Positions 2,467 through 50,979 of a stretch of DNA of 64,000 bases are shown piece after piece. A program made the translations under genes and the position numbers. Position 1 is the stretch's first letter. Every line of letters starts with the position of its first letter. Origin of the DNA: Acidimicrobiales bacterium (GTDB taxonomy: Bacteria; Actinomycetota; Acidimicrobiia; Acidimicrobiales; Aldehydirespiratoraceae); the NCBI GenBank assembly GCA_022425325.1, contig JAKMFW010000100.1:1-64000 (forward strand). Reading direction: 5' to 3'. The notes beneath the pieces were generated by a model. The model saw nothing but the letters and a program-made list of their open reading frames with translations. It did no database searches and had not been told where the DNA came from.

Positions 2467-2889
2467 TCAGCGGACCACGCCGTCTTCGAGCTCGTACAGG
2501 CGCTTGACCGCACCGACGAGGATCTTGCGGGCGAGCTTGGGGCTCTCGTCGAGCAGCGATGAGAACTCGCGCCGGTTGAGGGTCTCGACCACCATCGGGC
2601 TCTCGGCGGTGACGGTGGCCGTGCGGGGCACGCCGGCGATTACGGCGAGCTCGCCGAAGAAGTCGCCCGGGCCGAGGGTGGCGACAAGGCGCCCGTTGCG
2701 GCGCACGCTGGCCTCGCCGTCGACGATGATCATGAAGTCACGTCCGGTGGTGCCCTGCACGGTGAGATCTCGGCCCTGACGCACATCGGTCGTCGTCATG
2801 TACGACGCGACCTTCTTGATCTCCTTGCCGGTGAGCTCGGAGAACAGTTCGATGCTGGCGAGGCGTTCGACCAACGACGACATGTGCAT
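2467..2889 (-). CDS. Standalone cyclic-nucleotide-binding (CNB/Crp-like) domain protein
   Basis: This 140-aa protein carries FGELA and RTATV motifs typical of cNMP-binding beta-barrels. There is no DNA-binding HTH. Its stop sits 4 nt upstream of the ribokinase start. Confidence 0.7.
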   Translation of the reverse strand: MHMSSLVERLASIELFSELTGKEIKKVASYMTTTDVRQGRDLTVQGTTGRDFMIIVDGEASVRRNGRLVATLGPGDFFGELAVIAGVPRTATVTAESPMVVETLNRREFSSLLDESPKLARKILVGAVKRLYELEDGVVR

Positions 2890-2937
2890 GCACCCCCGAA
2901 TGAGCGATCGTCCCCGCTCGGGACGGTCCCGTGTCTA

Positions 2938-3897
2938 TCAGAAGACGGCGACCGGGCTGACTGGTGCGCCGCAGCCGCCGACGAAGGGCTCGGGGTTCGC
3001 TGCGAGGAAGAAGGTGTGGCGGCCCTCCTCGGCGCAGGCGACCGACAACGCCTCGAGATCCCAGATCTGTCCGGTGGTGAGTCCCATGTCGACGATCGCC
3101 AGGCAGTGGACCGCGAGCATGTTCTCGGGCTCCGGGCCAGGAAAGACCTCGAAGGTCAGGACGTCGTCGGCGACCGCAGCGACGTCGTTGCGGTGGAACC
3201 ACCGACACGCGTCGATGCCCGGGCCGGGGTTCGAGGCGTCGCCGGCGGGACCCATGATGTACGAGAGCCCGCCACCGTCCTTGAACGAACGGATTCGGCC
3301 CGTGCGGATCAGCACGATGTCGCCGGGCCGCATCTCGACGCCCGCCCACGCAGCCGTCTCGTCGAGTTCGTCACTCGTGATCTCGTGACCGCCGGGGAGT
3401 TGGTCGACTCCTCGCATCGCAGCGACATCGAGGAGCACGCCGCGACCGACAAGCGTGCGTACGTTCTCGATCCCGAGCACGGTCGATCCGCCAAGTGCAG
3501 TGACGGTGTCGGCCGGGACACCGTTGTACAGCGAGCCTGCGTAGCTGACATGGCCGAGTGCGTCCCAGTGGGTCGCAGCCTGCAAACCCATCACGACATG
3601 GTCGTCGTTGAAGTGGGGGACCATGGCGTTGCCGTCGGGGTCGCCGAGATCCGGGTTGTTGATGTAGTTCATCGCCCGCAGTGGGTTGACCCGGCCGGGT
3701 ATCGAACCGATCTGGGGTCCGTTCGGCGAGAGATCGATCGCCATCGGGACCCGCCGACCCGAACGGATTGTCGACGCAGCGTGGGCAACGGCTTCGTCGG
3801 TGAGCAGGTTGAGCGTGCCGAGGCGGTCGTCGTCACCCCACCGGCCCCAGTTGCGGACTTCGGTACTGATCTCGTGGAAGCGATCGTTGAACGACAT
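2938..3897 (-). CDS. Cyclase-family protein (kynurenine formamidase-like metal hydrolase)
   Basis: It has the HxDxxxH-like metal-binding pattern and overall cyclase-family composition. I placed the start at MSFNDRF (cat at 3895-3897), which has an AGGAAGGA Shine-Dalgarno sequence upstream. Confidence 0.65.
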   Translation of the reverse strand: MSFNDRFHEISTEVRNWGRWGDDDRLGTLNLLTDEAVAHAASTIRSGRRVPMAIDLSPNGPQIGSIPGRVNPLRAMNYINNPDLGDPDGNAMVPHFNDDHVVMGLQAATHWDALGHVSYAGSLYNGVPADTVTALGGSTVLGIENVRTLVGRGVLLDVAAMRGVDQLPGGHEITSDELDETAAWAGVEMRPGDIVLIRTGRIRSFKDGGGLSYIMGPAGDASNPGPGIDACRWFHRNDVAAVADDVLTFEVFPGPEPENMLAVHCLAIVDMGLTTGQIWDLEALSVACAEEGRHTFFLAANPEPFVGGCGAPVSPVAVF

Positions 3898-3907
3898 GGA
3901 GTCCTTC

Positions 3908-4855
3908 CTAGTAGCCGGCGTCGATGTCGACCAGCCCGTCGAGGGGTTCACCTGCGCGCCAGGCGAGGTAATTGTGGTGGAACGTCTCGATCATTGTCTC
4001 GTACGCGCCCGGGCCCATCCACGAGGTGTGGGGTGTGAGGAGCACCTTGGGGTGGTGGTACATCCAGTGCCCCTCGGGCAGCGGCTCGGGGGTGCAGACG
4101 TCGAGCGAGGCCCGGGCGATCGTGTCGTTGTCGAGCGCAGTGCGCAGTGCGTCCTGGTCGACGAGGGTGCCCCGGGCGATGTTGCAGAAGTGCACGCCCG
4201 GCTTCATTTTCGCAAAGAGTTGGGTGTCGAACATGCCCTGGGTGTCGGGGGTCGAGGGAGCGGCGACCACGACATGATCGGCTTCGCCGATCACGGTCGC
4301 GATGTCGTTCACCACGGTCATGCCCGGGTGGGGTGCGTCGGTGCCTCGTCGGCGGACGCTGATGACGTTCATGTCGAGCGCAAGTGCGAGGCGGGCGACC
4401 TCGGACCCGATGCCACCCATGCCGAGAATCACGACGGTGGCGCCCCGCAGGGTTCCGACTCGGAAGTCGGGTCGGGACCAATCGGCCGGTGGTTGGTCGA
4501 GGAAGACGTCGGGGAGTCCCTTGGCGGCTGCGAGCATCTGGGCGAAGACCCACTCGCCGATCAATTCGCCGCTGATGCCGCGTGAGCAGGTGAGTGTCTG
4601 TCCCTGGAGGGCGTCGAACGGGAAGCTGTCGACACCGGTGCCGACGGTGTGCACCCACCTCGGACTCCGGGCCAGCAGGTCGGCGAGGTTGGGGCCGCCG
4701 TCGGTGCGGGTCAAGACGACCTCGCCGTCGATATCGGGAGGGATCTCGCCTTCGCGTGGGCATTCGACGACGCGTATCCCCGGCCACTCGTGGACCTGGG
4801 ACGGAAGCGGGAACTCACTGTGGTTGATGACGACGGTTTCCGTGGTGTCGGACAT
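3908..4855 (-). CDS. D-isomer-specific 2-hydroxyacid dehydrogenase, NAD-binding
   Basis: It has a Rossmann motif GMGGIGSEVARLA and the catalytic R..E..H arrangement (ARG...PEP...HTSW). The start was moved to MSDTTETVV. Confidence 0.75.
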   Translation of the reverse strand: MSDTTETVVINHSEFPLPSQVHEWPGIRVVECPREGEIPPDIDGEVVLTRTDGGPNLADLLARSPRWVHTVGTGVDSFPFDALQGQTLTCSRGISGELIGEWVFAQMLAAAKGLPDVFLDQPPADWSRPDFRVGTLRGATVVILGMGGIGSEVARLALALDMNVISVRRRGTDAPHPGMTVVNDIATVIGEADHVVVAAPSTPDTQGMFDTQLFAKMKPGVHFCNIARGTLVDQDALRTALDNDTIARASLDVCTPEPLPEGHWMYHHPKVLLTPHTSWMGPGAYETMIETFHHNYLAWRAGEPLDGLVDIDAGY

Positions 4856-4926
4856 GGCGTGGGACCGTACCCGCCGAGACCCCCGCAAGGAATCGGAGTA
4901 CGGTTGGGCGGGACGGTGATGCGGGT

Positions 4927-5457
4927 ATGACGGCTCTCTATCTTTTTTGTGCGGCGGTCGGCATTCCGTTGCTGCTGTGGTTCTCCTTGGCCGGCGATGC
5001 CGATGGTGGCGACGGGTTCGGCGACGCCGATGCCGACGGCCCCCTTGCGTTCTTGTCGTTGTCGACGTTGTCGTTCGTGCTGGGGTTCTTCGGCCTGACC
5101 GGTCTGTTGCTCGACATCGTCGGTACCGCTGGTCTCCTCACCTTGCTCGTGGCGATCATCACCGCCATCGCCGCCGGCGCCTTCAACAGCGCGGCCTTTC
5201 GTTGGCTTCGAAGAAACTCCAACTCCAGCGAGGTCATGGACCACGAACTCGAGGGCATGATCGCCGACGTGGCCCTCCCGATCAGCGGCGAACACCGTGG
5301 CAAGATCGTCCTCACGAAGGCCGGCGCTCGCGAACAGATGACCGCGACCCCGGTCGACGGCTCCACGATCGATCCGGGGGAGCGCGTCGTGATCGTCCGG
5401 GTGGAAGGCGGGGTCGCCCTTGTCGCACCCCTCGGACCCGATCTCGAACTCGGCTGA
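4927..5457 (+). CDS. NfeD-like membrane protein (YqiJ/YuaF family) with a C-terminal OB-fold
   Basis: The N-terminal hydrophobic helices are followed by a soluble beta-rich C-terminus (GKIVLTKAG...GERVVIVRVEGGVALV). It sits immediately upstream of the flotillin gene, which is the canonical NfeD-SPFH pairing. Confidence 0.65.
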   Translation: MTALYLFCAAVGIPLLLWFSLAGDADGGDGFGDADADGPLAFLSLSTLSFVLGFFGLTGLLLDIVGTAGLLTLLVAIITAIAAGAFNSAAFRWLRRNSNSSEVMDHELEGMIADVALPISGEHRGKIVLTKAGAREQMTATPVDGSTIDPGERVVIVRVEGGVALVAPLGPDLELG

Positions 5458-5533
5458 CCCTTACTCGATTACCCGGCTCGCCGGGAACCAACCTCCGGTC
5501 CGGCCGGAGACAACCAGGAAAGAGAGACCACTG

Positions 5534-6829
5534 ATGGCTACCGCAATCGCCTTGGCGATCGTCGCCGTGCTCGCCGTCCTTTTCGTGATCATGATCGTCA
5601 GTTCGCTGATCGTGATCTGTCCCCCCAACAAGGTCGCTGTGATCTCCGGTCGAACGCGCACCCTGTCGGATGGGCGAACGGTCGGCTATCGCATTCTCAA
5701 GGGTGGCCGCACGCTACGAATCCCGATCCTGGAGAAGGTCTCCTGGATGGATCTCAGCACGATTCCACTCGAGGTCTCGGTCACCAACGCCTACTCGAAG
5801 GGCGCGATCCCGCTCAACGTGCAGGGCATTGCCAACGTGAAGGTGTCGAGCGCGGAGGGTCTGCTCGAGAACGCCGCCGAGCGCTTCCTCGACCGCCCCA
5901 CCGAACAGATCGGCCAGATCGCCAAGGAGACCCTCGAAGCCAACCTGCGCGGTGTGCTCGCCACGCTCTCGCCCGAAGAGGTCAACGAGGACCGGTTGAA
6001 GTTCTCTCATCAGCTGATCGACGAAGCCGACGACGACATCAAGACCTTGGGCCTCGAACTCGACGTGATGAAGATTCAGAACGTCACCGACGACAACCAG
6101 TACCTCGACTCGGTCGGCCGTCGACTTACGGCCGAGGTCGTCAAGCAGGCCCGTGTGGCCGAGGCCGAACGGATGGCCGAGTCCGAGGCAGCCGAGGCGG
6201 CCGCCCGAGAGCGAGCCCAGATCGCCACGGCGCAGGCCGACAAGAACATCGTCGAGGAGCAGAACCAGCTCCGTGTCCGCACCGCCGAGCTCGAAGCGAT
6301 CGCCAAGGCGAAGGAGGAGGAAGCGTCCGTCGCCGGCGACATCGCGCGTGCCACCGCCGAGCAGGAGCTCGAGCAGCAGCGCATCGAGCTGGAGCGCCGA
6401 CGCCTCGAGGCCGATGTCGTCACGCCCGCCAAGGCCAACCTCGAAGCCAAGCAGCTCGCCGCTCAGGCGGAGGCCGCCAAGATCATCGAGGACGGCAAGG
6501 CCCAGGTCGAGGTGTTCCAGCGACTGACGGAGCAGTACCAGGCCGCCGGCGACGACGGCCAGCGCATCTTCGTGCTTAACATGCTGCCGGAGCTCGTCGA
6601 CAAGATCGTGTCGACGGTTAACAATGTCGACATCGACCGGGTCGCCATCGTCGACAACGGCGGCGGTCAGGGCGGGGGGATTCCCAGCCTCGTGTCGCAG
6701 CTGCCGGGTGCGGTCGTCTCGCTCACCGAACAGATCGAGGCCGCCACCGGTGTCGACATTCTCGGCTCGATGCGCAGCGACCAGGCGGATTCGGAGCTTC
6801 CTCCTCCGCCGCCAGCACCGGAAGCCTGA
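5534..6829 (+). CDS. Flotillin / SPFH (band-7) domain protein with a long coiled-coil (EA-repeat) region
   Basis: An N-terminal TM helix is followed by an SPFH domain (KVAVISGRTR...GIANVKVS) and then an Ala/Glu-rich coiled coil. The start ATG at 5534 follows a GGAAAGAGAG ribosome-binding site. Confidence 0.8.
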   Translation: MATAIALAIVAVLAVLFVIMIVSSLIVICPPNKVAVISGRTRTLSDGRTVGYRILKGGRTLRIPILEKVSWMDLSTIPLEVSVTNAYSKGAIPLNVQGIANVKVSSAEGLLENAAERFLDRPTEQIGQIAKETLEANLRGVLATLSPEEVNEDRLKFSHQLIDEADDDIKTLGLELDVMKIQNVTDDNQYLDSVGRRLTAEVVKQARVAEAERMAESEAAEAAARERAQIATAQADKNIVEEQNQLRVRTAELEAIAKAKEEEASVAGDIARATAEQELEQQRIELERRRLEADVVTPAKANLEAKQLAAQAEAAKIIEDGKAQVEVFQRLTEQYQAAGDDGQRIFVLNMLPELVDKIVSTVNNVDIDRVAIVDNGGGQGGGIPSLVSQLPGAVVSLTEQIEAATGVDILGSMRSDQADSELPPPPPAPEA

Positions 6830-43429: not shown

Positions 43430-44002
43430 CTACGGTGCCCAGGCGCCGGTCGCTTCGTGGTGACGGCGGGCGGCGTCGGTCATCCACTCGGTGCGCCCTG
43501 CTCGAACCGCCGACGATGAGACGTCGAGGAGCGCGGCCCCGACCGGGAGCGCATGCTCGTCGGGTACGTCGAAGCCGGTTCGGGGCGCGAGCGCGAGGGC
43601 CGGCAGAGCTGCGAGCGCAGCGTCACGGGCAGCATGGTCGGGGTACCAGGCGACGTCATTGACCTGGGCCCATTTGTCGGCACCCATCACGACGACGTCG
43701 TACCCATCGGCGATGTCGGCGATGAGTTGGTGTTCAGTGACGATCAGGCCGAGCCCGTCGACCTCGGCGATCGACGCCTCGATGACCGCGAGGCGTTCCT
43801 CGAAGGGCGGCCGCATCACCGATTCTTTCCCGAGCGTGACCGTCGAGACGGCAAAGTCCACCCGGTGCAGACCGTGGTGCTCACGGGCGGTCAGGGCGAT
43901 CTCGAGGTGGGCGACCGTAGGTGGGTTGAACGAACCCGGGTACACGCCCAGGCGGGCGTCGAGGGGCAGGTGAGGGGCAGTCACGAGTCCGAACGTTGCC
44001 AT
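43430..44002 (-). CDS. Nucleotidyltransferase-fold protein (NadD/cytidylyltransferase-like)
   Basis: The motif GSFNPPTVAHL resembles the (H/T)xGH motif of the nucleotidylyltransferase superfamily. The assignment is tentative. Confidence 0.5.
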   Translation of the reverse strand: MATFGLVTAPHLPLDARLGVYPGSFNPPTVAHLEIALTAREHHGLHRVDFAVSTVTLGKESVMRPPFEERLAVIEASIAEVDGLGLIVTEHQLIADIADGYDVVVMGADKWAQVNDVAWYPDHAARDAALAALPALALAPRTGFDVPDEHALPVGAALLDVSSSAVRAGRTEWMTDAARRHHEATGAWAP

Positions 44003-44031
44003 GCCCGACGGCGCCCGTCATACTGGGCGCC

Positions 44032-44073
44032 GTGAACCACGCCGTCGGCCTCCTCGTAGTAGTAGCCCGCTAG
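44032..44073 (+). CDS. Putative ilvB leader peptide (13 codons, MNHAVGLLVVVAR)
   Basis: A GTG-initiated mini-ORF in the 216-bp ilvB leader region contains a Leu-Leu-Val-Val-Val run. The three Val are encoded by GTA, which is rare in this genome. A terminator hairpin follows. Confidence 0.45.
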   Translation: MNHAVGLLVVVAR

Positions 44074-44113
44074 CACACGTTCGCGCCCCTCCAACCGACC
44101 CGATCGTGTGCCT

Positions 44114-44148
44114 CGACCTCCCCACAACGGGAGGTCGTTGTCGTTTTC
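44114..44148 (+). terminator. Attenuator terminator hairpin in the ilvB leader
   Basis: A perfect 9-bp stem, CGACCTCCC (44114-44122) pairing with GGGAGGTCG (44129-44137), flanks a CACAAC loop and is followed by the T-rich tract TTGTCGTTTTC. An upstream alternative 7-bp stem pairs GCACACG with CGTGTGC. Confidence 0.5.
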
Positions 44149-44218: not shown

Positions 44219-46003
44219 ATGACGAGCTCCAACCCCAACAACGGTGGCGAAGCACTGGTGAAAGCCCTCGAGTACGAGGGCGTCGACGTGATGTTCGGCC
44301 TGCCCGGCGGCGCGATCCTGCCGGTCTACGACCCGATCCTTGATTCGTCGATCCGCCACGTGCTCGTGCGTCACGAGCAGGGCGCCGGCCACATGGCCGA
44401 GGGGTACGCCCACGCCACCGGCAAACCCGGGGTGTGCATGGTCACCTCCGGCCCGGCCGCAACCAACGTCGTCACCCCCCTCGCCGATGCCATGCTCGAT
44501 TCGGTTCCGATGGTGTGCATCACCGGTCAGGTTCCGCTCGCCGCAATCGGCACCGACGCGTTCCAGGAGTGCGACACCACCGGCATCACGATGGCGGTGA
44601 CCAAGCACAACTTCCTGGTCACCGACGCCCAGGACATCCCGCGGATCATCCACGAGGCATTCCACATTGCGACCACGGGCCGCCCCGGCCCCGTGTTGGT
44701 CGATATTCCGAAAGACATCGTCGACCCGACCAATCCGAAGTCGGCGATGACCTGGTACGACCCCGATTCCGTCCCGATGGAGCTGCCCGGCTACCGGCCC
44801 GTCATGGAGGGCGACCCGGCCCTCATCGAAGAGGCTGCTGCCCTGATCGCCCAGGCCGAGCGGCCGGTGCTCTATGTCGGCGGTGGTGTGCTCAAGGCCC
44901 GGGCCGCCGAACCGCTGCTCAAACTCGCCGAACTGCTGCAGATCCCGGTCGTCACCACCCTGATGGCCCGGGGCGCGTTCCCTGATCGCCACGAGCTCTG
45001 CCTCGGCATGCCCGGCATGCACGGCAACTACACCGCCGTCACCGCCATGCAAGAGAGCGACCTGCTCATCTCGCTCGGCGCCCGCTTCGACGATCGCATC
45101 ACCGGCAAGCTCGACGGCTTCGCCCCCACGGCGAAGATCATCCATGTCGACATCGACCCGGCGGAGCTCGGCAAGGTTCGGCAGTACAACGTCGGCATCC
45201 AGGGCGACTGCAAGCTCGTCATCGAGGGGCTCATCGAGGCCACGGAGAAACTCGGTACCTCGGCCCAGGCCGACCGCTCCGACTGGCGCTCCACCGTCTC
45301 CGGTTGGCAGGAGAAGTTCCCGCTCGTCTACGAGGATTCGCTGCCGGGCGACAAGCTCAAGCCGCAGTTCGTGATGGAACAACTGCGCGACGGTAACCCG
45401 CACGACACGATCCTGTGCTCGGGCGTCGGCCAGCACCAGATGCACGCCAGCCAGTTCTGGAAGTTCGACCACCCTTACACCTGGATCAACTCCGGAGGTC
45501 TGGGCACGATGGGCTTCTCGATTCCGGCGGCGATCGGCGCCAAGGCCGGGATGCCCGACCGGCGGGTGTGGGCGGTCGATGGCGATGGCAACTTCCAGAT
45601 GACGGCCCAGGAGTTGGTCACGGCCACCGTCGAGGACATCCCGATCAAGGTCGCCCTCTTCAACAACAGCTATCTCGGCATGGTCCGCCAGTGGCAGGAA
45701 ATGTTCTACGACGAGCGTTTCTCCGAGGTGCACCTCAGCGACAACGTCCCGGACTATGTGAAGTGGGCCGAGGCGATGGGTGCCGTCGGCATCCGTGTCG
45801 AGTCGCCGGAGGAGGTCGCCCCGGCGATCGCCAAGGCCAACGAGATCGACGACCGCTCGGTCGTCGTCGAATTCGTCACCGACGCCCGGGAGAACGTGTT
45901 CCCGATGGTCCCGGCCGGCAAGACCAACTCCGAACTGGTCGTCGACCCGAGCCAGCAGCACCTGATCGACGGTGACACCTCCGGGAAGGGAGCCGCGTCA
46001 TGA
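44219..46003 (+). CDS. ilvB: Acetolactate synthase large subunit
   Basis: It has the TPP-enzyme layout and the FAD/TPP motifs (GLGTMGFSIPAAIGAK...DGDGNFQM). I placed the start at MTSSNPNNGGEALVKALE. Confidence 0.9.
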   Translation: MTSSNPNNGGEALVKALEYEGVDVMFGLPGGAILPVYDPILDSSIRHVLVRHEQGAGHMAEGYAHATGKPGVCMVTSGPAATNVVTPLADAMLDSVPMVCITGQVPLAAIGTDAFQECDTTGITMAVTKHNFLVTDAQDIPRIIHEAFHIATTGRPGPVLVDIPKDIVDPTNPKSAMTWYDPDSVPMELPGYRPVMEGDPALIEEAAALIAQAERPVLYVGGGVLKARAAEPLLKLAELLQIPVVTTLMARGAFPDRHELCLGMPGMHGNYTAVTAMQESDLLISLGARFDDRITGKLDGFAPTAKIIHVDIDPAELGKVRQYNVGIQGDCKLVIEGLIEATEKLGTSAQADRSDWRSTVSGWQEKFPLVYEDSLPGDKLKPQFVMEQLRDGNPHDTILCSGVGQHQMHASQFWKFDHPYTWINSGGLGTMGFSIPAAIGAKAGMPDRRVWAVDGDGNFQMTAQELVTATVEDIPIKVALFNNSYLGMVRQWQEMFYDERFSEVHLSDNVPDYVKWAEAMGAVGIRVESPEEVAPAIAKANEIDDRSVVVEFVTDARENVFPMVPAGKTNSELVVDPSQQHLIDGDTSGKGAAS

Positions 46004-46500
46004 ACGTCTCGCCCACCAGCCCGCGCTGGCACACGATCGCCGCCACCGTCGAGAACAAGCCGGGTGTGCTCGCACGCGTTGCCGGGCTGTTTTCCCGTCG
46101 TGGCTTCAACATCCACTCGTTGGCCGTTGCGCCCACCGAGGACGAGAAGTTCAGTCGCATCACCTTCACCGTCGACATCGAGGGCACGCCGCTCGATCAG
46201 GTGGTGAAGCAACTCGACAAGCTGATCAATGTCGTCGACATCTCCCAGCTCGATCCTGATGCATCGGTCGAGCGTGAACTCATGCTTGTCATCGTCGAGG
46301 TGGGGGAGCAGCGCAAGGAGCTGATGGAGATCGTCGACGACTACCGCGCCTATGTGCTCAACGAGGGCGACGGCAAGGTCCTGATGTCGTGGTCGGCTCG
46401 CCCGAGCCGACTCGACGAGCTGGAAGCGCGTCTGCGCCCCTTCGGGATCGTCGACATGCAGCGCACCGGTCGCGTGACCCTCCCGTCACTCGGTACCTGA
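46000..46500 (+). CDS. ilvN: Acetolactate synthase small (regulatory) subunit
   Basis: It has an ACT domain N-terminus (HTIAATVENKPGVLARVAGLFSRRGFNIHSLAV). Its ATG overlaps the ilvB stop. Confidence 0.9.
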   Translation: MNVSPTSPRWHTIAATVENKPGVLARVAGLFSRRGFNIHSLAVAPTEDEKFSRITFTVDIEGTPLDQVVKQLDKLINVVDISQLDPDASVERELMLVIVEVGEQRKELMEIVDDYRAYVLNEGDGKVLMSWSARPSRLDELEARLRPFGIVDMQRTGRVTLPSLGT

Positions 46501-46511
46501 CGTTCCGAGGC

Positions 46512-46835
46512 TCAGTAGACGATGTCCAGTGCGTAGCGCAGCGCTTGGTCGAGCCGCGCCCGTGCGAGCTCATCGAGATGGCCGATGGCCTCGTCGTCGA
46601 GTGCGTCGACCGGCACGGTGATGACGTTGTCGCAGCTGACGACACACGCCTCGGGAAGCCCATGCTCGGGGCCCAGTTCGACCTCTGACCGGATCCCTCG
46701 GGCCGTGCGTGTGATCGGTGCACAGGTGACGGCGGCGAGCACTTCGATGGCTGCGTTGCGGGTGAGCACGCACACGGGACGGCGACCCGAGGGTGGGCCG
46801 AGATCTGCCCAATAGATCTCGTTTCGGGCTACCAC
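46512..46835 (-). CDS. mazF: MazF/PemK-family endoribonuclease toxin
   Basis: The N-terminus EIYWADLGPPSGRRPVCVL resembles mycobacterial MazF toxins. It has a GTG start at 46835. Confidence 0.8.
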   Translation of the reverse strand: MVARNEIYWADLGPPSGRRPVCVLTRNAAIEVLAAVTCAPITRTARGIRSEVELGPEHGLPEACVVSCDNVITVPVDALDDEAIGHLDELARARLDQALRYALDIVY

Positions 46836-47071
46836 GCGGGGCTGGTCTCAGCAGCAAGTCTCCTGGCCGATCGGACCAGTGCAGGGTCGGCTGGAGTCCG
46901 GCGGTATGCGGCTTGCAGTTCTCGGTCGGCCTCGGCGAACTGTTCAGCATCGAGCACGGCTTGGGCGCCTCGCCGGATCAGCTCGGAGCGGTTTGTGCCG
47001 AGATCGGCTGCGAGTTCATCGAGTTGCTCAACTGAGTGCGTGATCGCCCCCCAGGCTGCGCCCCGGGTCAG
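46829..47071 (-). CDS. Ribbon-helix-helix (MazE/CopG-like) antitoxin; start codon uncertain, with CTG the only candidate
   Basis: It is not in the ORF track. Hand translation gives ...GAAWGAITHSVEQLDELAADLGTNRSELIRRGAQAVLDAEQFAEADRELQAAYRR...AW*, an RHH-like sequence. Its TAG stop (46831-46829) overlaps the mazF GTG (the sequence is GTGGTAG). There is no in-frame ATG, GTG or TTG. A CTG at 47071-47069 overlaps the modF TGA (CTGA). Confidence 0.5.
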   Translation of the reverse strand: MTRGAAWGAITHSVEQLDELAADLGTNRSELIRRGAQAVLDAEQFAEADRELQAAYRRTPADPALVRSARRLAAETSPAW

Positions 47072-48492
47072 GCAGGTGTGTTTCCGGTCAGCGTCAGGTG
47101 GTTGTCGATCCCGGCGACGCGATCCTGCTCGCGATGGTTGACATAGAGCACGCTCGTCTCGCTGCCGAGACAGATCCGCTCGACGAGGGCGAGCACGAGC
47201 TGCCGGTTCATGTCATCGAGGCCGAGGCACGGTTCGTCGAGGATCAGCAGTGGTGGGTGCTTCACCATGGCGCGTGCGATCAACACGAGGCGTTGGTCGC
47301 CGAACGAGAGCCGGTTGAACGGCTCGTCGGCTCGGTCAGACATGCCGAGCAGGGCGAGCCATTCGTTGGCGATGGCCTTCTCGGTGTCGGTGCTCTTCGT
47401 GTAGAGCCCGATGCTGTCGTGGAAGCCGGAGATGATGACGTTCCGGAGGCTGGTGCTCACCGTGTACTCCCACTGGAGGGCGGTCGAGACGTACCCGATG
47501 AACTGCTTGATCTCCCAGATGCTCTCGCCGGTGCCGCGCTGGTAGCCGAAGACATTGATGTCGTTGACATAGCACTGCGGATGATCGCCGGTGATCAACT
47601 GCAGCAGGCAGGTCTTGCCGCTGCCGTTGGGGCCGCTCAGCTGCCAGCTCTGGTTCGGTTCGATCGTCCAGTCGAGGCCATCGAACACGGTGTTGTCGGT
47701 GTAGCGGACGGTGGCGCCGGTGAGTTGCACGAGCGGCGTGGCGGGGTCGAGCGCCGGCAGCTTCGCCGCTGGGTCGGCCGCAGGGATCTCGAGATCGCTC
47801 GTCTTGAGATGAAGGAGCTGGTAGAGCTCGGCGTAGGCCTGCTCGTCGGCTCGCTCGACGCAGAGCGGAAGTCGGCCGTCGTCGACGTAGGCGACGTGGG
47901 TGACGAAGTCGGGGCACTCGTCGAAGCGGTTGAGCACGATCACCATGGGGGTCGTCTCGGCCAACGTGCGTAGATGGCCCTGCAGCCAGACGAGCGAGTC
48001 GTGGTCGAGGCCGTCGAACGGCTCATCGAGGACGAGCAGATCCGGCCGACTCGTGAGCGCCCGGATCAACATGACCTTGCGGGTCTCGCCGGTCGAGAGT
48101 TTGCGGAACGCCCGGCTCATCAGGGGCCGGAGACCCAGCGTGTCGACCAGGCTCCGAGCCAGATTGAGGTCCTGGCAGCCGTCCTCGATGATCTCGGCAA
48201 CCGGTGTGCCTTCGGAGATCACGTCGAGGATGTCGGCGTCGTCTTTTCGGCGTTCGGCGGCGATCAGCTCGGCCTGCCGCTCATAGGACACGAGCGCGAT
48301 CCGCTTGGGGACTCCCTCGATGCTCCCCGACAGGATGTCTCCGTCGCCGGCCAGCACCGCGGCGAGCGCCGACTTGCCGGAGCCGTTGGCGCCGGCGATC
48401 AGCCAGTGCTCGCCCGGACGGAGTGTCCAGTCGATGTCGAGGAGCTGAAAGCGCTCGTCGAAGTCGACCGACAGCGCGTCCAGATGGATCAT
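47068..48492 (-). CDS. modF: ModF-like soluble ABC ATPase with two tandem ATP-binding cassettes and no TM domain
   Basis: It has two Walker A sites (GANGSGKSAL and GPNGSGKTCL), signatures LSTGETRK and LSFGDQR, and Walker B sites LLVLDEPFDGLD and LLILDEPCLGLD. It closely resembles E. coli ModF, recalled from memory. Confidence 0.8.
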   Translation of the reverse strand: MIHLDALSVDFDERFQLLDIDWTLRPGEHWLIAGANGSGKSALAAVLAGDGDILSGSIEGVPKRIALVSYERQAELIAAERRKDDADILDVISEGTPVAEIIEDGCQDLNLARSLVDTLGLRPLMSRAFRKLSTGETRKVMLIRALTSRPDLLVLDEPFDGLDHDSLVWLQGHLRTLAETTPMVIVLNRFDECPDFVTHVAYVDDGRLPLCVERADEQAYAELYQLLHLKTSDLEIPAADPAAKLPALDPATPLVQLTGATVRYTDNTVFDGLDWTIEPNQSWQLSGPNGSGKTCLLQLITGDHPQCYVNDINVFGYQRGTGESIWEIKQFIGYVSTALQWEYTVSTSLRNVIISGFHDSIGLYTKSTDTEKAIANEWLALLGMSDRADEPFNRLSFGDQRLVLIARAMVKHPPLLILDEPCLGLDDMNRQLVLALVERICLGSETSVLYVNHREQDRVAGIDNHLTLTGNTPA

Positions 48493-48502
48493 GCGAGAAC
48501 GA

Positions 48503-49975
48503 TCAGACGATGCGCTTCATGTCGGCCATGTGGCCCCGGAGCACCGAGCCGATCGCCTCGACCGGGTGGCTCCGGATGGCTTCGTTGACCTCGATCAGGC
48601 GGGCGTTGTCGACGCCGTTGTCGGCCGCGTCGAGACCCTTGCCGATCACGTCGCTCGTGATGCCGGTCATGAAGTCGGCGAGCAGTGGAACGCACGCGTG
48701 GTTGTACAGGTAGCACCCGTACTCGGCCGTGTCGGAGATCGTGGCGTTCATCTCGTAGAGCTTCTTGCGAGCGATCGTGTTGGCGATCAGTGGGGTCTCG
48801 TGCAGCGACTCGTAGTAGGCCGACTCGGCGATGATGCCGGCGGCGGTCATCGTCTCGAAGGCGAGTTCGACGCCGGCCTTCACCATGGCGACCATGAGGA
48901 TGCCGTTGTCGAAGTATTCCTGTTCGGCGATCTCCATGTCGCCAGCCGGCGTCTTCTCGAACGCGGTCTCGGCGGTATCGGCGCGCCAGCCGAGCAGCTT
49001 GGCGTCGTCGTCGGCCCAGTCGGCCATCATGCCGGACGAGAAGGCGCCGGTCATGATGTCGTCCTGGTGCTTGTTGTAGAGGTCGCGCATGATGTCCTTG
49101 AGCTCCTCGGAGAGCTCGAAGGCCCGGATCTTCGCCGGGTTCGACAGGCGGTCCATCATGTTGGTGACCCCGCCGTACTTGAGCGCCTCGGTGATGGTCT
49201 CCCAGCCGTACTGGATGAGCTTCGAGGCGTAGCTCGGATCGGTGCCCTCGTCGACCATCTTGTCGAAGCACAGCAACGAGCCGGTCTGCAGCATCCCGCA
49301 GAGGATGGTCTGCTCGCCCATGAGGTCGGACTTGACCTCGGCGATGAACGACGACATCAACACGCCGGCCTTGTGGCCGCCGGTGCCGACGGCGTAGGCC
49401 TTGGCGAGCGCAAGGCCTTCTCCGTTGGGGTCGTTGTCCTCGTGAACGGCGATCAGGGTCGGTACGCCGAAGCCACGGACGTATTCGGCCCGGACCTCGG
49501 AGCCGGGGCACTTGGGCGCAACCATGATGACGGTGATGTCGTCACGGATCTGCATGCCCTCCTCGACGATGTTGAAGCCGTGCGAGTACGAGAGGCAGGC
49601 ACCGTGCTTCATCATCGGCATGATCGTCTCGACGACATTGGTGTGCTGCTTGTCGGGGGTGAGGTTGAGCACCACGTCGGCGGTGGGCAGTAGTTCTTCG
49701 TAGGTGCCGACGGTGAAGCCGTTCTCGGTGGCGTTCTTCCACGACTGGCGTTGTTGGGCGATGGCCTCGTCGCGAAGGGCGTAGGACACGTCGAGGCCGC
49801 TGTCGCGGAGGTTGAGACCCTGGTTGAGGCCCTGGGCGCCACAACCGATCACGACCATCTTCTTGCCGCGGAGCGCCTCGACGCCGTCGGAGAACTCGTC
49901 GAGGTGCATGAAGCGGCACTTGCCGAGTTCGGCGAGCTGTGCTCGAAGCGGAAGGGTGTTGAAGTAGTTGGCCAT
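48503..49975 (-). CDS. ilvC: Ketol-acid reductoisomerase, class II (long-form, enterobacterial type)
   Basis: Its 490 aa start [23 protein letters not shown] and include ...[27 protein letters not shown]..., which is near-collinear with E. coli IlvC. The start was moved to the internal Met (cat at 49973-49975), which has a GGAGA ribosome-binding site. Confidence 0.9.
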
Positions 49976-50046
49976 GACAGGTCTCCACGTGAGATCGAAC
50001 GCACGAATGCTACCGATCGACATGTGTTTCGTAAATGGACATATGT

Positions 50047-50073
50047 GCAACGTTGCGTCCCGATATCTGCAAC
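50047..50073. promoter_or_regulatory. Candidate IlvY operator (LTTR box) in the ilvY-ilvC divergent promoter region
   Basis: There is a perfect palindrome GCAACGTTGC at 50047-50056 and a further TGCAAC half-site at 50068-50073. Confidence 0.4.
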
Positions 50074-50082
50074 GATGGACGA

Positions 50083-50979
50083 GTGAACATCACGGTGTTG
50101 CGCCACTTCGTCGAGCTGAGCGAGACACTGCACTTCGGGCGAGCCAGCGCCCGGGCGAACATCAGCACATCGGCGTTGTCACGCCACATCCGACAGCTCG
50201 AAGCCGAGCTCAATGTGGCGTTGTTCGATCGTGACAACCGAACCGTCGAGCTGACGCCGGCGGGTATCCGATTTCAGCGTTACGCCCGTGACGCCGTGCA
50301 GCAATGGGACCAGATCCGCTTCGAGCTCACCGACCCTGCTGACCACCTGCGGGGCGAGATCAGCCTCTACTGCTCGGTCACAGCCAGCCACAGCATCTTG
50401 TTCGACCTGCTGAACCGCTTCCGTCCCGCCCATCCGGGCGTCGAGATCCGGCTCCAGACCGGGGACCCCGAATATGCGATCGCGCGAGTGCAGGCGTTGG
50501 AGGAGGATCTCGCGATCGCCGCCCGCCCCGCCAACCTGCCCGCCGGTGTGCGGTTCAAGCCGATCCGGGTCTCACCGCTCGTCTTCATCGAGTCGGTCGA
50601 GACCGTCGACCCGATGCCGTCGAGCCTGCCGCCGGATGCACGCGAGGCCTGGGCGGAGGTCCCGATGATTCTCGCCGCCGGCGGCATCGCCCGTCGCCGG
50701 GTCGATGCCTGGTTTCGCCGGCTCGACGTCACGCCGAAGATCTACGCCCAGGTTGCCGGTAACGAGGCGATCGTCAGCATGGTCAGTCTCGGGCTAGGCC
50801 TCGGTGTGGTGCCGAAGATCGTGCTTGACAACAGCCCTCATGCCGAACGTGTCCGCGTGCTCGAGGTCGACCCGGTGCTGGAACCCTACGAACTCGGGTT
50901 GTTCACCCTGAAGCGTCACCTGCACAACCCGCTCGTGGATGCGTTCTGGTCGTTGCTTCCCGACGAGGTCGATCAGTAA
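50083..50979 (+). CDS. ilvY: LysR-type transcriptional regulator, IlvY-like
   Basis: It lies divergent from ilvC. It has an N-terminal HTH ([35 protein letters not shown]) and an LTTR effector domain collinear with E. coli IlvY. A GTG at 50083 was chosen by homology, and an ATG at 50035 is also possible. Confidence 0.8.

Follow-up and report, generated by a model that had tools for sequence, protein, structure and literature searches.

We describe here a stretch of DNA from an Acidimicrobiales bacterium (contig JAKMFW010000100.1, 64,000 nucleotides, hereafter the window), in which ilvC, encoding a class II (long-form) ketol-acid reductoisomerase (KARI), lies divergent from ilvY, encoding a LysR-type regulator, and is followed by a modF-like gene; the three genes with the DNA between ilvY and ilvC are called the cassette. 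An ancestor of this acidimicrobial lineage very probably gained this whole regulatory module from a marine gammaproteobacterium, and the module has been inherited vertically since then. It is a known system in a new setting and not an unprecedented one: regulator, operator, promoter and target moved across phyla as a block. The imported module would consist of ilvY, the divergent operator/promoter region, class II ilvC and the modF-like ATPase gene, which in the window are laid out as follows.

50083..50979 (+): ilvY, LysR-type regulator, 298 aa from GTG 50083 (NF008722; HTH_1 and LysR_substrate)
50071..50076 (+): putative -10-like hexamer AACGAT, 6 nt upstream of the ilvY start, overlapping an IR1 half-site
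50058..50072 (-): IR1 (TTGCAGATATCGGGA), counterpart of E. coli O1, centred about -65 relative to the predicted start of ilvC (by alignment)
50036..50050 (-): IR2 (TTGCACATATGTCCA), imperfect dyad centred on ATAT, about -43 (by alignment)
50026..50040 (-): IR3 (GTCCATTTACGAAAC), counterpart of E. coli O2, about -34, overlapping the ilvC -35 (by alignment)
50007..50035 (-): predicted ilvC promoter, -35 TTTACG (50035-50030), 17-nt spacer, -10 TAGCAT (50012-50007) (by homology)
49981..49986 (-): Shine-Dalgarno sequence GGAGAC, 5 nt upstream of the ilvC ATG (read from the sequence)
48503..49975 (-): ilvC, class II (long-form) KARI, 490 aa (NF003557; PF07991 and two PF01450; match to 1YRL)
47068..48492 (-): modF-like gene, 10 nt 3' of ilvC, for a soluble ATPase with two ABC domains (NF008186; PF00005 in two stretches)

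Where did such a cassette come from? A collection of 185,579 species genomes gave, as its 80 best loci, 32 from Acidimicrobiia (L001-L032) and 48 from marine Gammaproteobacteria (L033-L080), the latter including Vreelandella/Halomonas, Marinobacterium, Marinomonas, Neptuniibacter, Amphritea and Granulosicoccaceae. Identity of IlvC to the window protein is 90-98% in the Acidimicrobiia and, directly below them, 87-89% in the marine Gammaproteobacteria. For IlvC, IlvY and ModF alike, the window proteins are much closer to those of marine Gammaproteobacteria than the latter are to those of E. coli, as seen in the following identities.

Window and marine Gammaproteobacteria: IlvC 88%, IlvY 62%, ModF 69%
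Window and E. coli: IlvC 72.5%, IlvY 42%, ModF 41%
Marine Gammaproteobacteria and E. coli: IlvC 70-71%, IlvY 40-42%, ModF 43%

An initial annotation of the window, made from the sequence alone, had called the pair enterobacterial in type; its relatives are instead marine Gammaproteobacteria, with IlvC of 88% identity, and Enterobacteria reach only 72%. In neighbour-joining trees (200-300 bootstraps; E. coli and Fulvitalea as outgroups for IlvC), the Acidimicrobiia are monophyletic with bootstrap support of 84% for IlvC with its two outgroups, 100% for IlvY and 98% for ModF, while a monophyletic group of marine Gammaproteobacteria excluding the Acidimicrobiia receives only 3%, 1% and 3%, respectively. 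Since the acidimicrobial sequences nest inside those of marine Gammaproteobacteria, the direction of transfer is taken to be from Gammaproteobacteria to Acidimicrobiia. Grouping of the Acidimicrobiia with Granulosicoccaceae is found in 89% of the bootstraps for IlvC, 58% for IlvY and 32% for ModF, and a lineage like the Granulosicoccaceae would be the closest match to the marine gammaproteobacterial donor.

The cassette is old in its present host. G+C contents at third codon positions (GC3) of ilvC, ilvY and modF are 0.92, 0.83 and 0.89, compared with 0.74-0.86 for neighbouring genes and 0.43-0.73 for gammaproteobacterial ilvC, and at the nucleotide level ilvC is 76-82% identical to the marine gammaproteobacterial genes sampled. 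Identity ranks of IlvC, IlvY and ModF track those of the host IlvB, which descend from about 97-99% in L002-L004 to about 70% in L011 and L032. Because codon usage is host-like and the cassette follows the divergence of the host, these data would fit one ancient acquisition, after which the cassette descended vertically in a broad acidimicrobial clade and its codon usage was fully ameliorated. The initial annotation had likewise judged from the high-GC codon usage that a horizontal acquisition, if there was one, took place long ago. It had also named, as an outcome that would speak against such an acquisition, a broad, vertically inherited actinobacterial clade; the clade is indeed broad within the Acidimicrobiia, but it is nested in gammaproteobacterial sequences. 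No reports of IlvY or of class II KARI in Actinobacteria were found in the searchable literature.

One sequence in the acidimicrobial clade carries a conflicting label. L031 (CALHVX010000081.1) is named 'uncultured Pseudomonadales' and has a GC content of 53%, and its cassette is flanked by genes for a PP2C phosphatase, a Ser/Thr kinase and an F420-type nitroreductase-like protein. Either the contig was misbinned or it comes from a relative of low GC content. L031 was considered as a possible true gammaproteobacterium and nearest donor, but its flanks look, if anything, actinobacterial-like.

The class of the KARI is clear from its family matches. Window IlvC reaches 923 bits with the NCBIfam class II equivalog NF003557 (cut-off 713) and stays under the cut-offs of both class I models, NF004017 and NF009940. 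It has PF07991 (KARI_N) and then PF01450 (KARI_C) in two stretches, a class I KARI used as a query matches its C-terminal half twice, and the E. coli IlvC structure 1YRL aligns with it end to end at 814 bits, E. coli IlvC showing five indel columns. By these matches it is a member of the class II KARI family, and KARI catalysis itself is predicted; the 490-aa class II enzyme of the initial annotation is thereby upheld, and the positions and sequence features listed there were all found in the window. Catalytic and Mg-binding residues (D217, E221, E389, E393, K155 and H132 in E. coli) and R68, R76 and S78 of the NADPH loop (E. coli numbering) are invariant in the IlvC of all 32 acidimicrobial and 48 gammaproteobacterial loci. 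In the loop for the 2'-phosphate of NADPH (window 49750-49800), E. coli K69 is replaced by D and K75 by Q. The K75Q change is found in 25 of 32 acidimicrobial IlvC proteins and in 2 of 48 gammaproteobacterial ones, and this could mark a lineage-specific change in cofactor handling.

The regulator, too, is assigned by its family matches. It scores 366 bits with the IlvY equivalog NF008722 (cut-off 246), the next best family giving 115 bits, and it has the domains PF00126 (HTH_1) and PF03466 (LysR_substrate), so that the earlier recognition of an IlvY-type LysR regulator divergent from ilvC holds good. A PDB search with IlvY returned no IlvY structure, CysB being the best match at 62.7 bits. The long open reading frame (ORF) of ilvY spans 50035-50979 (+) with an in-frame ATG at 50035. 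The true start is most likely GTG 50083, because residue 17-18 of this long frame is where the NF008722 match and all relatives start, and the ATG at 50035 is probably unused; the GTG position is kept as ATG or GTG in relatives. With this start, the two divergent genes are separated by 107 bp (between 49975 and 50083), and the divergent arrangement is found in 30/32 acidimicrobial and 41/48 gammaproteobacterial loci.

The operator and the promoter of ilvC came along with the genes. In E. coli, ilvY-ilvC consists of a gene for a LysR-type activator, tandem operators O1 and O2, and divergent overlapping promoters (Wek and Hatfield, 1988; Rhee et al., 1998, in PMC5002191). O1 is ACgTTGCAAaaaTTGCAAtGT and O2 is aTATatCaatttccGcaATAa, and IlvY recognizes repeats of TTGCA-N5-TGCAA whose centres are at -65, -43 and -34 relative to the start of ilvC (PMC5002191). 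When the ilvY-ilvC intergenic regions were taken from all loci and anchored on one common template, operator and promoter aligned column by column among the window, the 32 acidimicrobial loci, marine Gammaproteobacteria and O1/O2 of E. coli. Three of these sequences are written here in the orientation of ilvC.

Window: CGTTGCAGATATCGGGACGCAACGTTGCACATATGTCCATTTACGAAAC-N17-TAGCAT
Halomonas: AGTTGCGAAAAATGGGACGTGTTATTGCAAATATATCAATTTAAGAAAG...TATACA
E. coli: CGTTGCAAAAATTGCAATGTGACGTTGTGAATATATCAATTTCCGCAAT...TATAGT

The two GTTGCA elements (IR1-IR2) are 22 bp apart in the window, identical to E. coli, and TTTACG and TAGCAT of the window share alignment columns with TTTCCG and TATAGT of E. coli. 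A start of ilvC transcription near 50000 would place the three sites at -65, -43 and -33/-34. The 48-nt template GTTGCA-N6-GGGAC-N5-GTTGCANATATNTCNATTTACGAAAC occurs only once in the window, at 50026-50073 (-), with no occurrence expected in shuffled sequences. Loci of marine Gammaproteobacteria (Granulosicoccus, Halomonas/Vreelandella, Marinobacterium, Marinomonas; L033-L080) have the same three genes in the same order and the same operator template including GGGAC and TTTACGAAAC, though their ilvC 5' region, from the operator start to the ATG, is mostly longer (109-232 nt, compared with 73-132 nt in Acidimicrobiia), their ilvC-modF gaps are larger, their ilvC has the lower GC3 given above and the genes do not lie beside ilvBN. 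Compared with the E. coli system, what is shared is the divergent pair of class II KARI and IlvY, the TTGCA-type half-sites with their spacing, the columns of -35 and -10, and the predicted site centres, while what differs is protein identity (only 72% for IlvC and 42% for IlvY), the right half of IR1, the length of the intergenic region (107 bp, but 149 bp in E. coli), the modF-like gene after ilvC, the probably leaderless ilvY and the actinobacterial host.

The initial annotation had pointed to a perfect palindrome in the intergenic region as a site for IlvY, together with a TGCAAC half-site. Both are present, the palindrome GCAACGTTGC at 50047-50056 and TGCAAC at 50068-50073. As a binding unit, however, the palindrome does not stand: the window contains 116 perfect 10-bp palindromes, so that GCAACGTTGC alone is not beyond chance, and its perfect form is not conserved in relatives, L002 having CAGCGTTGC and L001 TAGCGTTGC at this site. 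It is a strain-specific coincidence that overlaps the left half of IR2 and a conserved GTTGCA half-site. The conserved operator elements, as far as alignment tells, are the GTTGCA half-sites 22 bp apart and the ATAT-centred dyad, matching O1/O2 of E. coli.

Conservation of 90% or more across the 32 acidimicrobial loci is seen for GGGAC, the half-sites, TCAATTTACGAAAC, TAG..T and the ATAT centre of the dyad, and likewise for the elements TTGCA, ATAT and TCAA of IR2. Over the same loci the spacers and the 5' untranslated region (5'UTR) of ilvC drifted, and IlvY proteins have a mean identity of 76%. Selection on IlvY binding therefore appears to be ongoing, because the operator core was kept while spacers, 5'UTR and the IlvY protein diverged. 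The ilvC promoter itself matches the consensus at 8 of 12 positions; it was missed by a generic promoter scan and was located by homology to E. coli instead. Such a weak promoter would be typical of dependence on an activator. We considered whether the TAGnnT form of the -10 element had been retuned for the new host, but half of the gammaproteobacterial loci also carry TAG.

How, then, might the imported genes be regulated? IlvY would bind IR1, IR2 and IR3, with centres near -65, -43 and -34, if it behaves as in the E. coli system. We infer the identity of its inducer and the activation mechanism in this host: a build-up of acetolactate or acetohydroxybutyrate, the substrates of KARI, would lead IlvY to activate TTTACG-17-TAGCAT and thereby drive ilvC-modF. 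IlvY would also repress its own, probably leaderless, transcript. A NANNNT hexamer is present 6-7 nt upstream of the ilvY start in 24 of 30 acidimicrobial loci, CATACT in 14 of these, and a Shine-Dalgarno-like motif was found upstream of ilvY in none of the 30. This suggests that ilvY mRNA is leaderless and that its -10 is blocked when IlvY occupies IR1; because IR1 overlaps this -10, autorepression may follow. That a leaderless ilvY is an actinobacterial adaptation was also considered, and the idea is weakened by several Gammaproteobacteria that likewise have a -10-like hexamer 7 nt upstream and lack a Shine-Dalgarno sequence. A similar layout is seen at the leader peptide of the host ilvB, where a -10 CATACT lies 7 nt before the GTG (window 44019-44034) of an apparently leaderless transcript; this CATACT-N6/7-start layout recurs upstream of ilvY in many relatives.

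Several points weigh against acquisition of an intact module as outlined here. Neighbour-joining was the only tree method, and sampling comprised just the 80 best genome matches and two outgroups, E. coli and Fulvitalea. Assignment of the donor to Granulosicoccaceae is moderate and only loosely pinned, with a support of 46-89% that varies with protein and outgroups. The right half of IR1 is GGGAC in the window and in marine Gammaproteobacteria, not TGCAA as in E. coli, and binding geometry at IR1 may differ from that in E. coli. Finally, L015 lost ilvY and the operator and keeps ilvC-modF, so that control by IlvY is dispensable in at least one lineage. In L015 (4337-9000), ilvC-modF adjoins ilvBN, and a gene for a 524-aa FAD-type dehydrogenase ends 90 bp before ilvC.

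The last two of these points, together with the established fact that actinobacterial RNA polymerase is unlike that of the donor, are also what could be said for a different fate of the module: it was imported, but IlvY has ceased to activate ilvC in response to substrate and has possibly been recruited to another role, the operator being a relic and ilvC-modF being expressed constitutively or under some other control. IR1, in particular, matches the E. coli dyad only by half. A relic is hardly expected to retain its 48-nt core, -35 and -10 at 90% or more over 32 acidimicrobial loci while spacers, 5'UTR and IlvY drifted, nor to be the single site of its kind in 64 kb, and the 8/12 promoter is as weak as the need for an activator predicts. 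Loss of the regulatory function is thus unlikely, although of the alternatives weighed here it survives best. Among marine Gammaproteobacteria, seven loci of Amphritea and Neptuniibacter (L052, L059, L068, L069, L074, L075, L077) have ilvC-modF with a degenerate operator-like sequence (24-25/35 template positions), and no IlvY homologue was detected upstream of their ilvC by tblastn at E<=1e-3.

Could the transfer have run in reverse, the cassette arising in Acidimicrobiia and passing from there to marine Gammaproteobacteria? Acidimicrobiia and Granulosicoccaceae are sisters in the IlvC tree (89%), and between those two alone the direction is unpolarised. This pair, however, falls in turn within a set of other gammaproteobacterial orders, to which E. 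coli and Fulvitalea are external; E. coli has IlvY and class II KARI natively, with the same operator; and every scenario still needs a transfer from Gammaproteobacteria to Acidimicrobiia. An acidimicrobial origin is accordingly quite improbable.

Still less probable is that class II KARI and IlvY are an old actinobacterial or acidimicrobial trait, passed on by vertical inheritance only, whose likeness to gammaproteobacterial proteins reflects slow evolution of KARI. It is true that KARI evolves slowly, acidimicrobial IlvC remaining at least 90% identical where IlvB falls to 70%, and that the cassette is found throughout a diverse acidimicrobial clade, tracking host divergence. However, slow evolution does not explain why identity of IlvC between phyla (88%) exceeds that within a class (70-71% between marine Gammaproteobacteria and E. 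coli), why the same pattern recurs in the non-coding operator and in IlvY and ModF, which evolve faster, or why Acidimicrobiia are nested in marine Gammaproteobacteria with only 1-3% support for the alternative. Moreover, the enzyme encoded by ilvC after ilvBN in other Actinobacteria is of class I. Their genes are organized as ilvBNC operons (PMC1262725).

The proposed acquisition from marine Gammaproteobacteria also accounts for the company of ilvC on its other side. The ModF-like protein matches NF008186 with 484 bits at a cut-off of 459, a narrow margin, and has two ABC domains and no membrane domain. Its gene lies directly 3' of ilvC in 31 of 32 acidimicrobial and 47 of 48 marine gammaproteobacterial loci. 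When the window proteins were compared with the loci by tblastn, the order ilvY<->ilvC-modF was found in 30-31 of 32 and 41-47 of 48, respectively; loci without the full order are mostly contig ends. In E. coli, modF adjoins modE, away from ilvC. Because ilvY<->ilvC-modF is syntenic in both phyla and E. coli modF is elsewhere, modF is best taken as a passenger of the imported block and not as a gene displacing ilvC. The gap of 10 nt makes co-transcription of ilvC and modF probable. What should such a gene be called? Its linkage to ilvC is shared by the window with 78 other loci, and an association with the molybdate genes modE and modABC was not found. It is best called 'ModF-like' for the reason that its linkage is to ilvC and not to molybdate genes, and a linkage so well kept may point to a role connected with KARI or the synthesis of branched-chain amino acids, and not with molybdate. 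Nothing relevant on ModF function was found in the literature.

The region around the cassette belongs to the host, a marine member of the Acidimicrobiia. Besides ilvBN, the flanks in the window contain gatA, gatB, a MATE transporter gene, a gene for a DrrA-like ABC ATPase, otsA and a gene of the Rv3169 family; the best genome matches are marine metagenome-assembled genomes (MAGs) of Acidimicrobiaceae, Acidimicrobiales or Ilumatobacter, and the same gene order, with flanks put at 95-99% and flanking proteins at 90-99% identity, is found in four Acidimicrobiaceae MAGs from different studies (L001-L004). The features between the flanks and the cassette are the following.

43996..44147 (+): ilvB leader with promoter TTGCCA-17-CATACT (43996-44024), leader peptide and terminator (from sequence and relatives)
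44032-44073 (+): ilvB leader peptide VNHAVGLLVVVAR, leaderless, 13 codons, with an L/V run (conserved)
44114-44147 (+): GC-rich terminator hairpin of the ilvB leader (44114-44137), then T-tract TTGTCGTTTT (from sequence)
44219..46500 (+): ilvB (44219-46003) and ilvN (46000-46500), host-type acetolactate synthase (TIGR00118, 751 bits; NF008864, 164 bits)
46512..46957 (-): MazF/PemK toxin gene (46512-46835, 107 aa) and an overlapping upstream ORF of 42 aa (46829-46957) (PF02452, 49.5 bits)

That all this is a chimera of assembly or binning, a gammaproteobacterial fragment misjoined to an acidimicrobial contig, might be thought from a source that is probably itself a MAG and from the doubtful 'Pseudomonadales' label of the related L031, yet it is the least credible of the alternatives, as host genes lie on both sides of the cassette, the cassette occupies the same place in the four independent MAGs L001-L004 and is carried on contigs as long as 4.87 Mb (L019), its GC3 matches the host, and its ilvC has only 76-82% nucleotide identity to the marine gammaproteobacterial loci sampled.

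The MazF module, in turn, is foreign to the cassette. It is absent from L002-L004, and because these nearest relatives have only about 55 bp between modF and ilvN, the module is best explained as a recent, strain-specific local insertion. The initial annotation had described ilvC as displaced by a toxin-antitoxin module and modF. This has to be revised: modF is part of the imported block, as in 47/48 gammaproteobacterial loci, and only the MazF module is local.

In the window, ilvBN and the cassette are convergent, as they are in L001-L005, L007, L015 and L026. In L011, L013 and L032 the cassette lies in forward orientation (ilvBN-> <-ilvY ilvC->), which brings ilvC to the usual actinobacterial ilvBNC position. 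None of the 48 gammaproteobacterial loci has ilvBN nearby, and for this reason adjacency to ilvBN is ascribed to the recipient. The landing site would have been in or beside the slot 3' of ilvBN, where Actinobacteria normally carry class I ilvC. A search for which the queries were the class II protein and a class I sequence of C. glutamicum found no class I KARI gene or pseudogene remnant in the window and 84 loci (13-kb loci), only class II ilvC. Compared with actinobacterial ilvBNC (PMC1262725), the locus is alike in the leader ORF with a Leu/Val run and the terminator hairpin before ilvB and in having gatAB nearby, and differs in that class I ilvC is missing after ilvN, its slot being taken by the imported cassette, inverted in the window and forward in the three loci named.

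The leader of ilvB is another component inherited from the host. Corynebacterium, Mycobacterium and Streptomyces have a leader-peptide and terminator design at ilvB, though the attenuation mechanism is contested even in Streptomyces (PMC1262725). The L/V run of the peptide in the window and the hairpin are kept in nine relatives whose IlvB identity goes as low as 70%, in accord with the actinobacterial-style attenuator seen by the initial annotation. The minimum-free-energy fold of the leader retains the terminator (z = -2.0), and an antiterminator pairing was not identified; an Rfam scan of the whole window gave no match, meaning that there is no curated family for this leader. ilvBN would retain the leader-peptide attenuator of the host, placing substrate supply under the status of aminoacyl-tRNA and the next step under substrate induction, as in E. 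coli. In that organism, leader-peptide attenuation of ilvBN is combined with control of ilvC by IlvY. The initial annotation had seen in the window a mosaic of two unrelated regulatory logics. A mosaic it is in ancestry only; E. coli natively combines both.

Is it plausible that such a block can travel? Class II ilvC is found on 61 plasmid records. Among them are conjugative IncN KPC plasmids of Enterobacteriaceae, in which chromosomal ilvY-ilvC-ppiC fragments lie beside IS1, so that regulator, operator and ilvC can travel as a unit; an example is NZ_CP026205.1 (L084), an IncN pKPC carbapenemase plasmid with ilvY-ilvC-ppiC at 2823-5834 next to IS1. Unlike the cassette of the window, these fragments are of enterobacterial sequence (72.6% identity), bounded by IS1, devoid of modF and recent, and on these grounds (sequence, lack of modF and age) they were rejected as its source. 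Another replicon, pFA1 of Fulvitalea axinellae (L083; 554 kb), carries at 4001-5497 a class II KARI of the Bacteroidota with 74% identity; it has no ilvY, and a gene for an AraC-family regulator lies upstream of ilvC instead.

What does the cassette mean for regulation in these bacteria? No new kind of system is revealed by it. It is rather a natural experiment in regulatory portability, in which a regulator, its binding sites and the target promoter crossed a phylum boundary together and were then kept almost base for base, and it offers a ready test of whether activation by LysR-type proteins needs contacts specific to the polymerase of the host. It may also be a case of xenologous displacement in a core pathway, with the import at the slot of the displaced gene and beside a retained host attenuator, so that control of one pathway was joined from two ancestries. 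For annotators, it is a warning not to take 'IlvY/class II KARI' in the abundant marine Acidimicrobiia for contamination, as the pair there is genuine, and it flags the linkage of ilvC and modF as strongly conserved and unexplained. Tentatively, and with rather less confidence than in the acquisition itself, we can go one step further and suppose that the complete LysR module, with regulator, three-site operator, activator-dependent promoter and target operon, has stayed functional across phyla and through long diversification. If so, activation of the IlvY type would be independent of contacts with RNA polymerase specific to the donor, in keeping with the models of DNA bending and supercoiling proposed for E. 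coli, and the ModF-like ATPase, always linked to ilvC, would be a partner in function of KARI or of the branched-chain pathway and not a molybdate protein.

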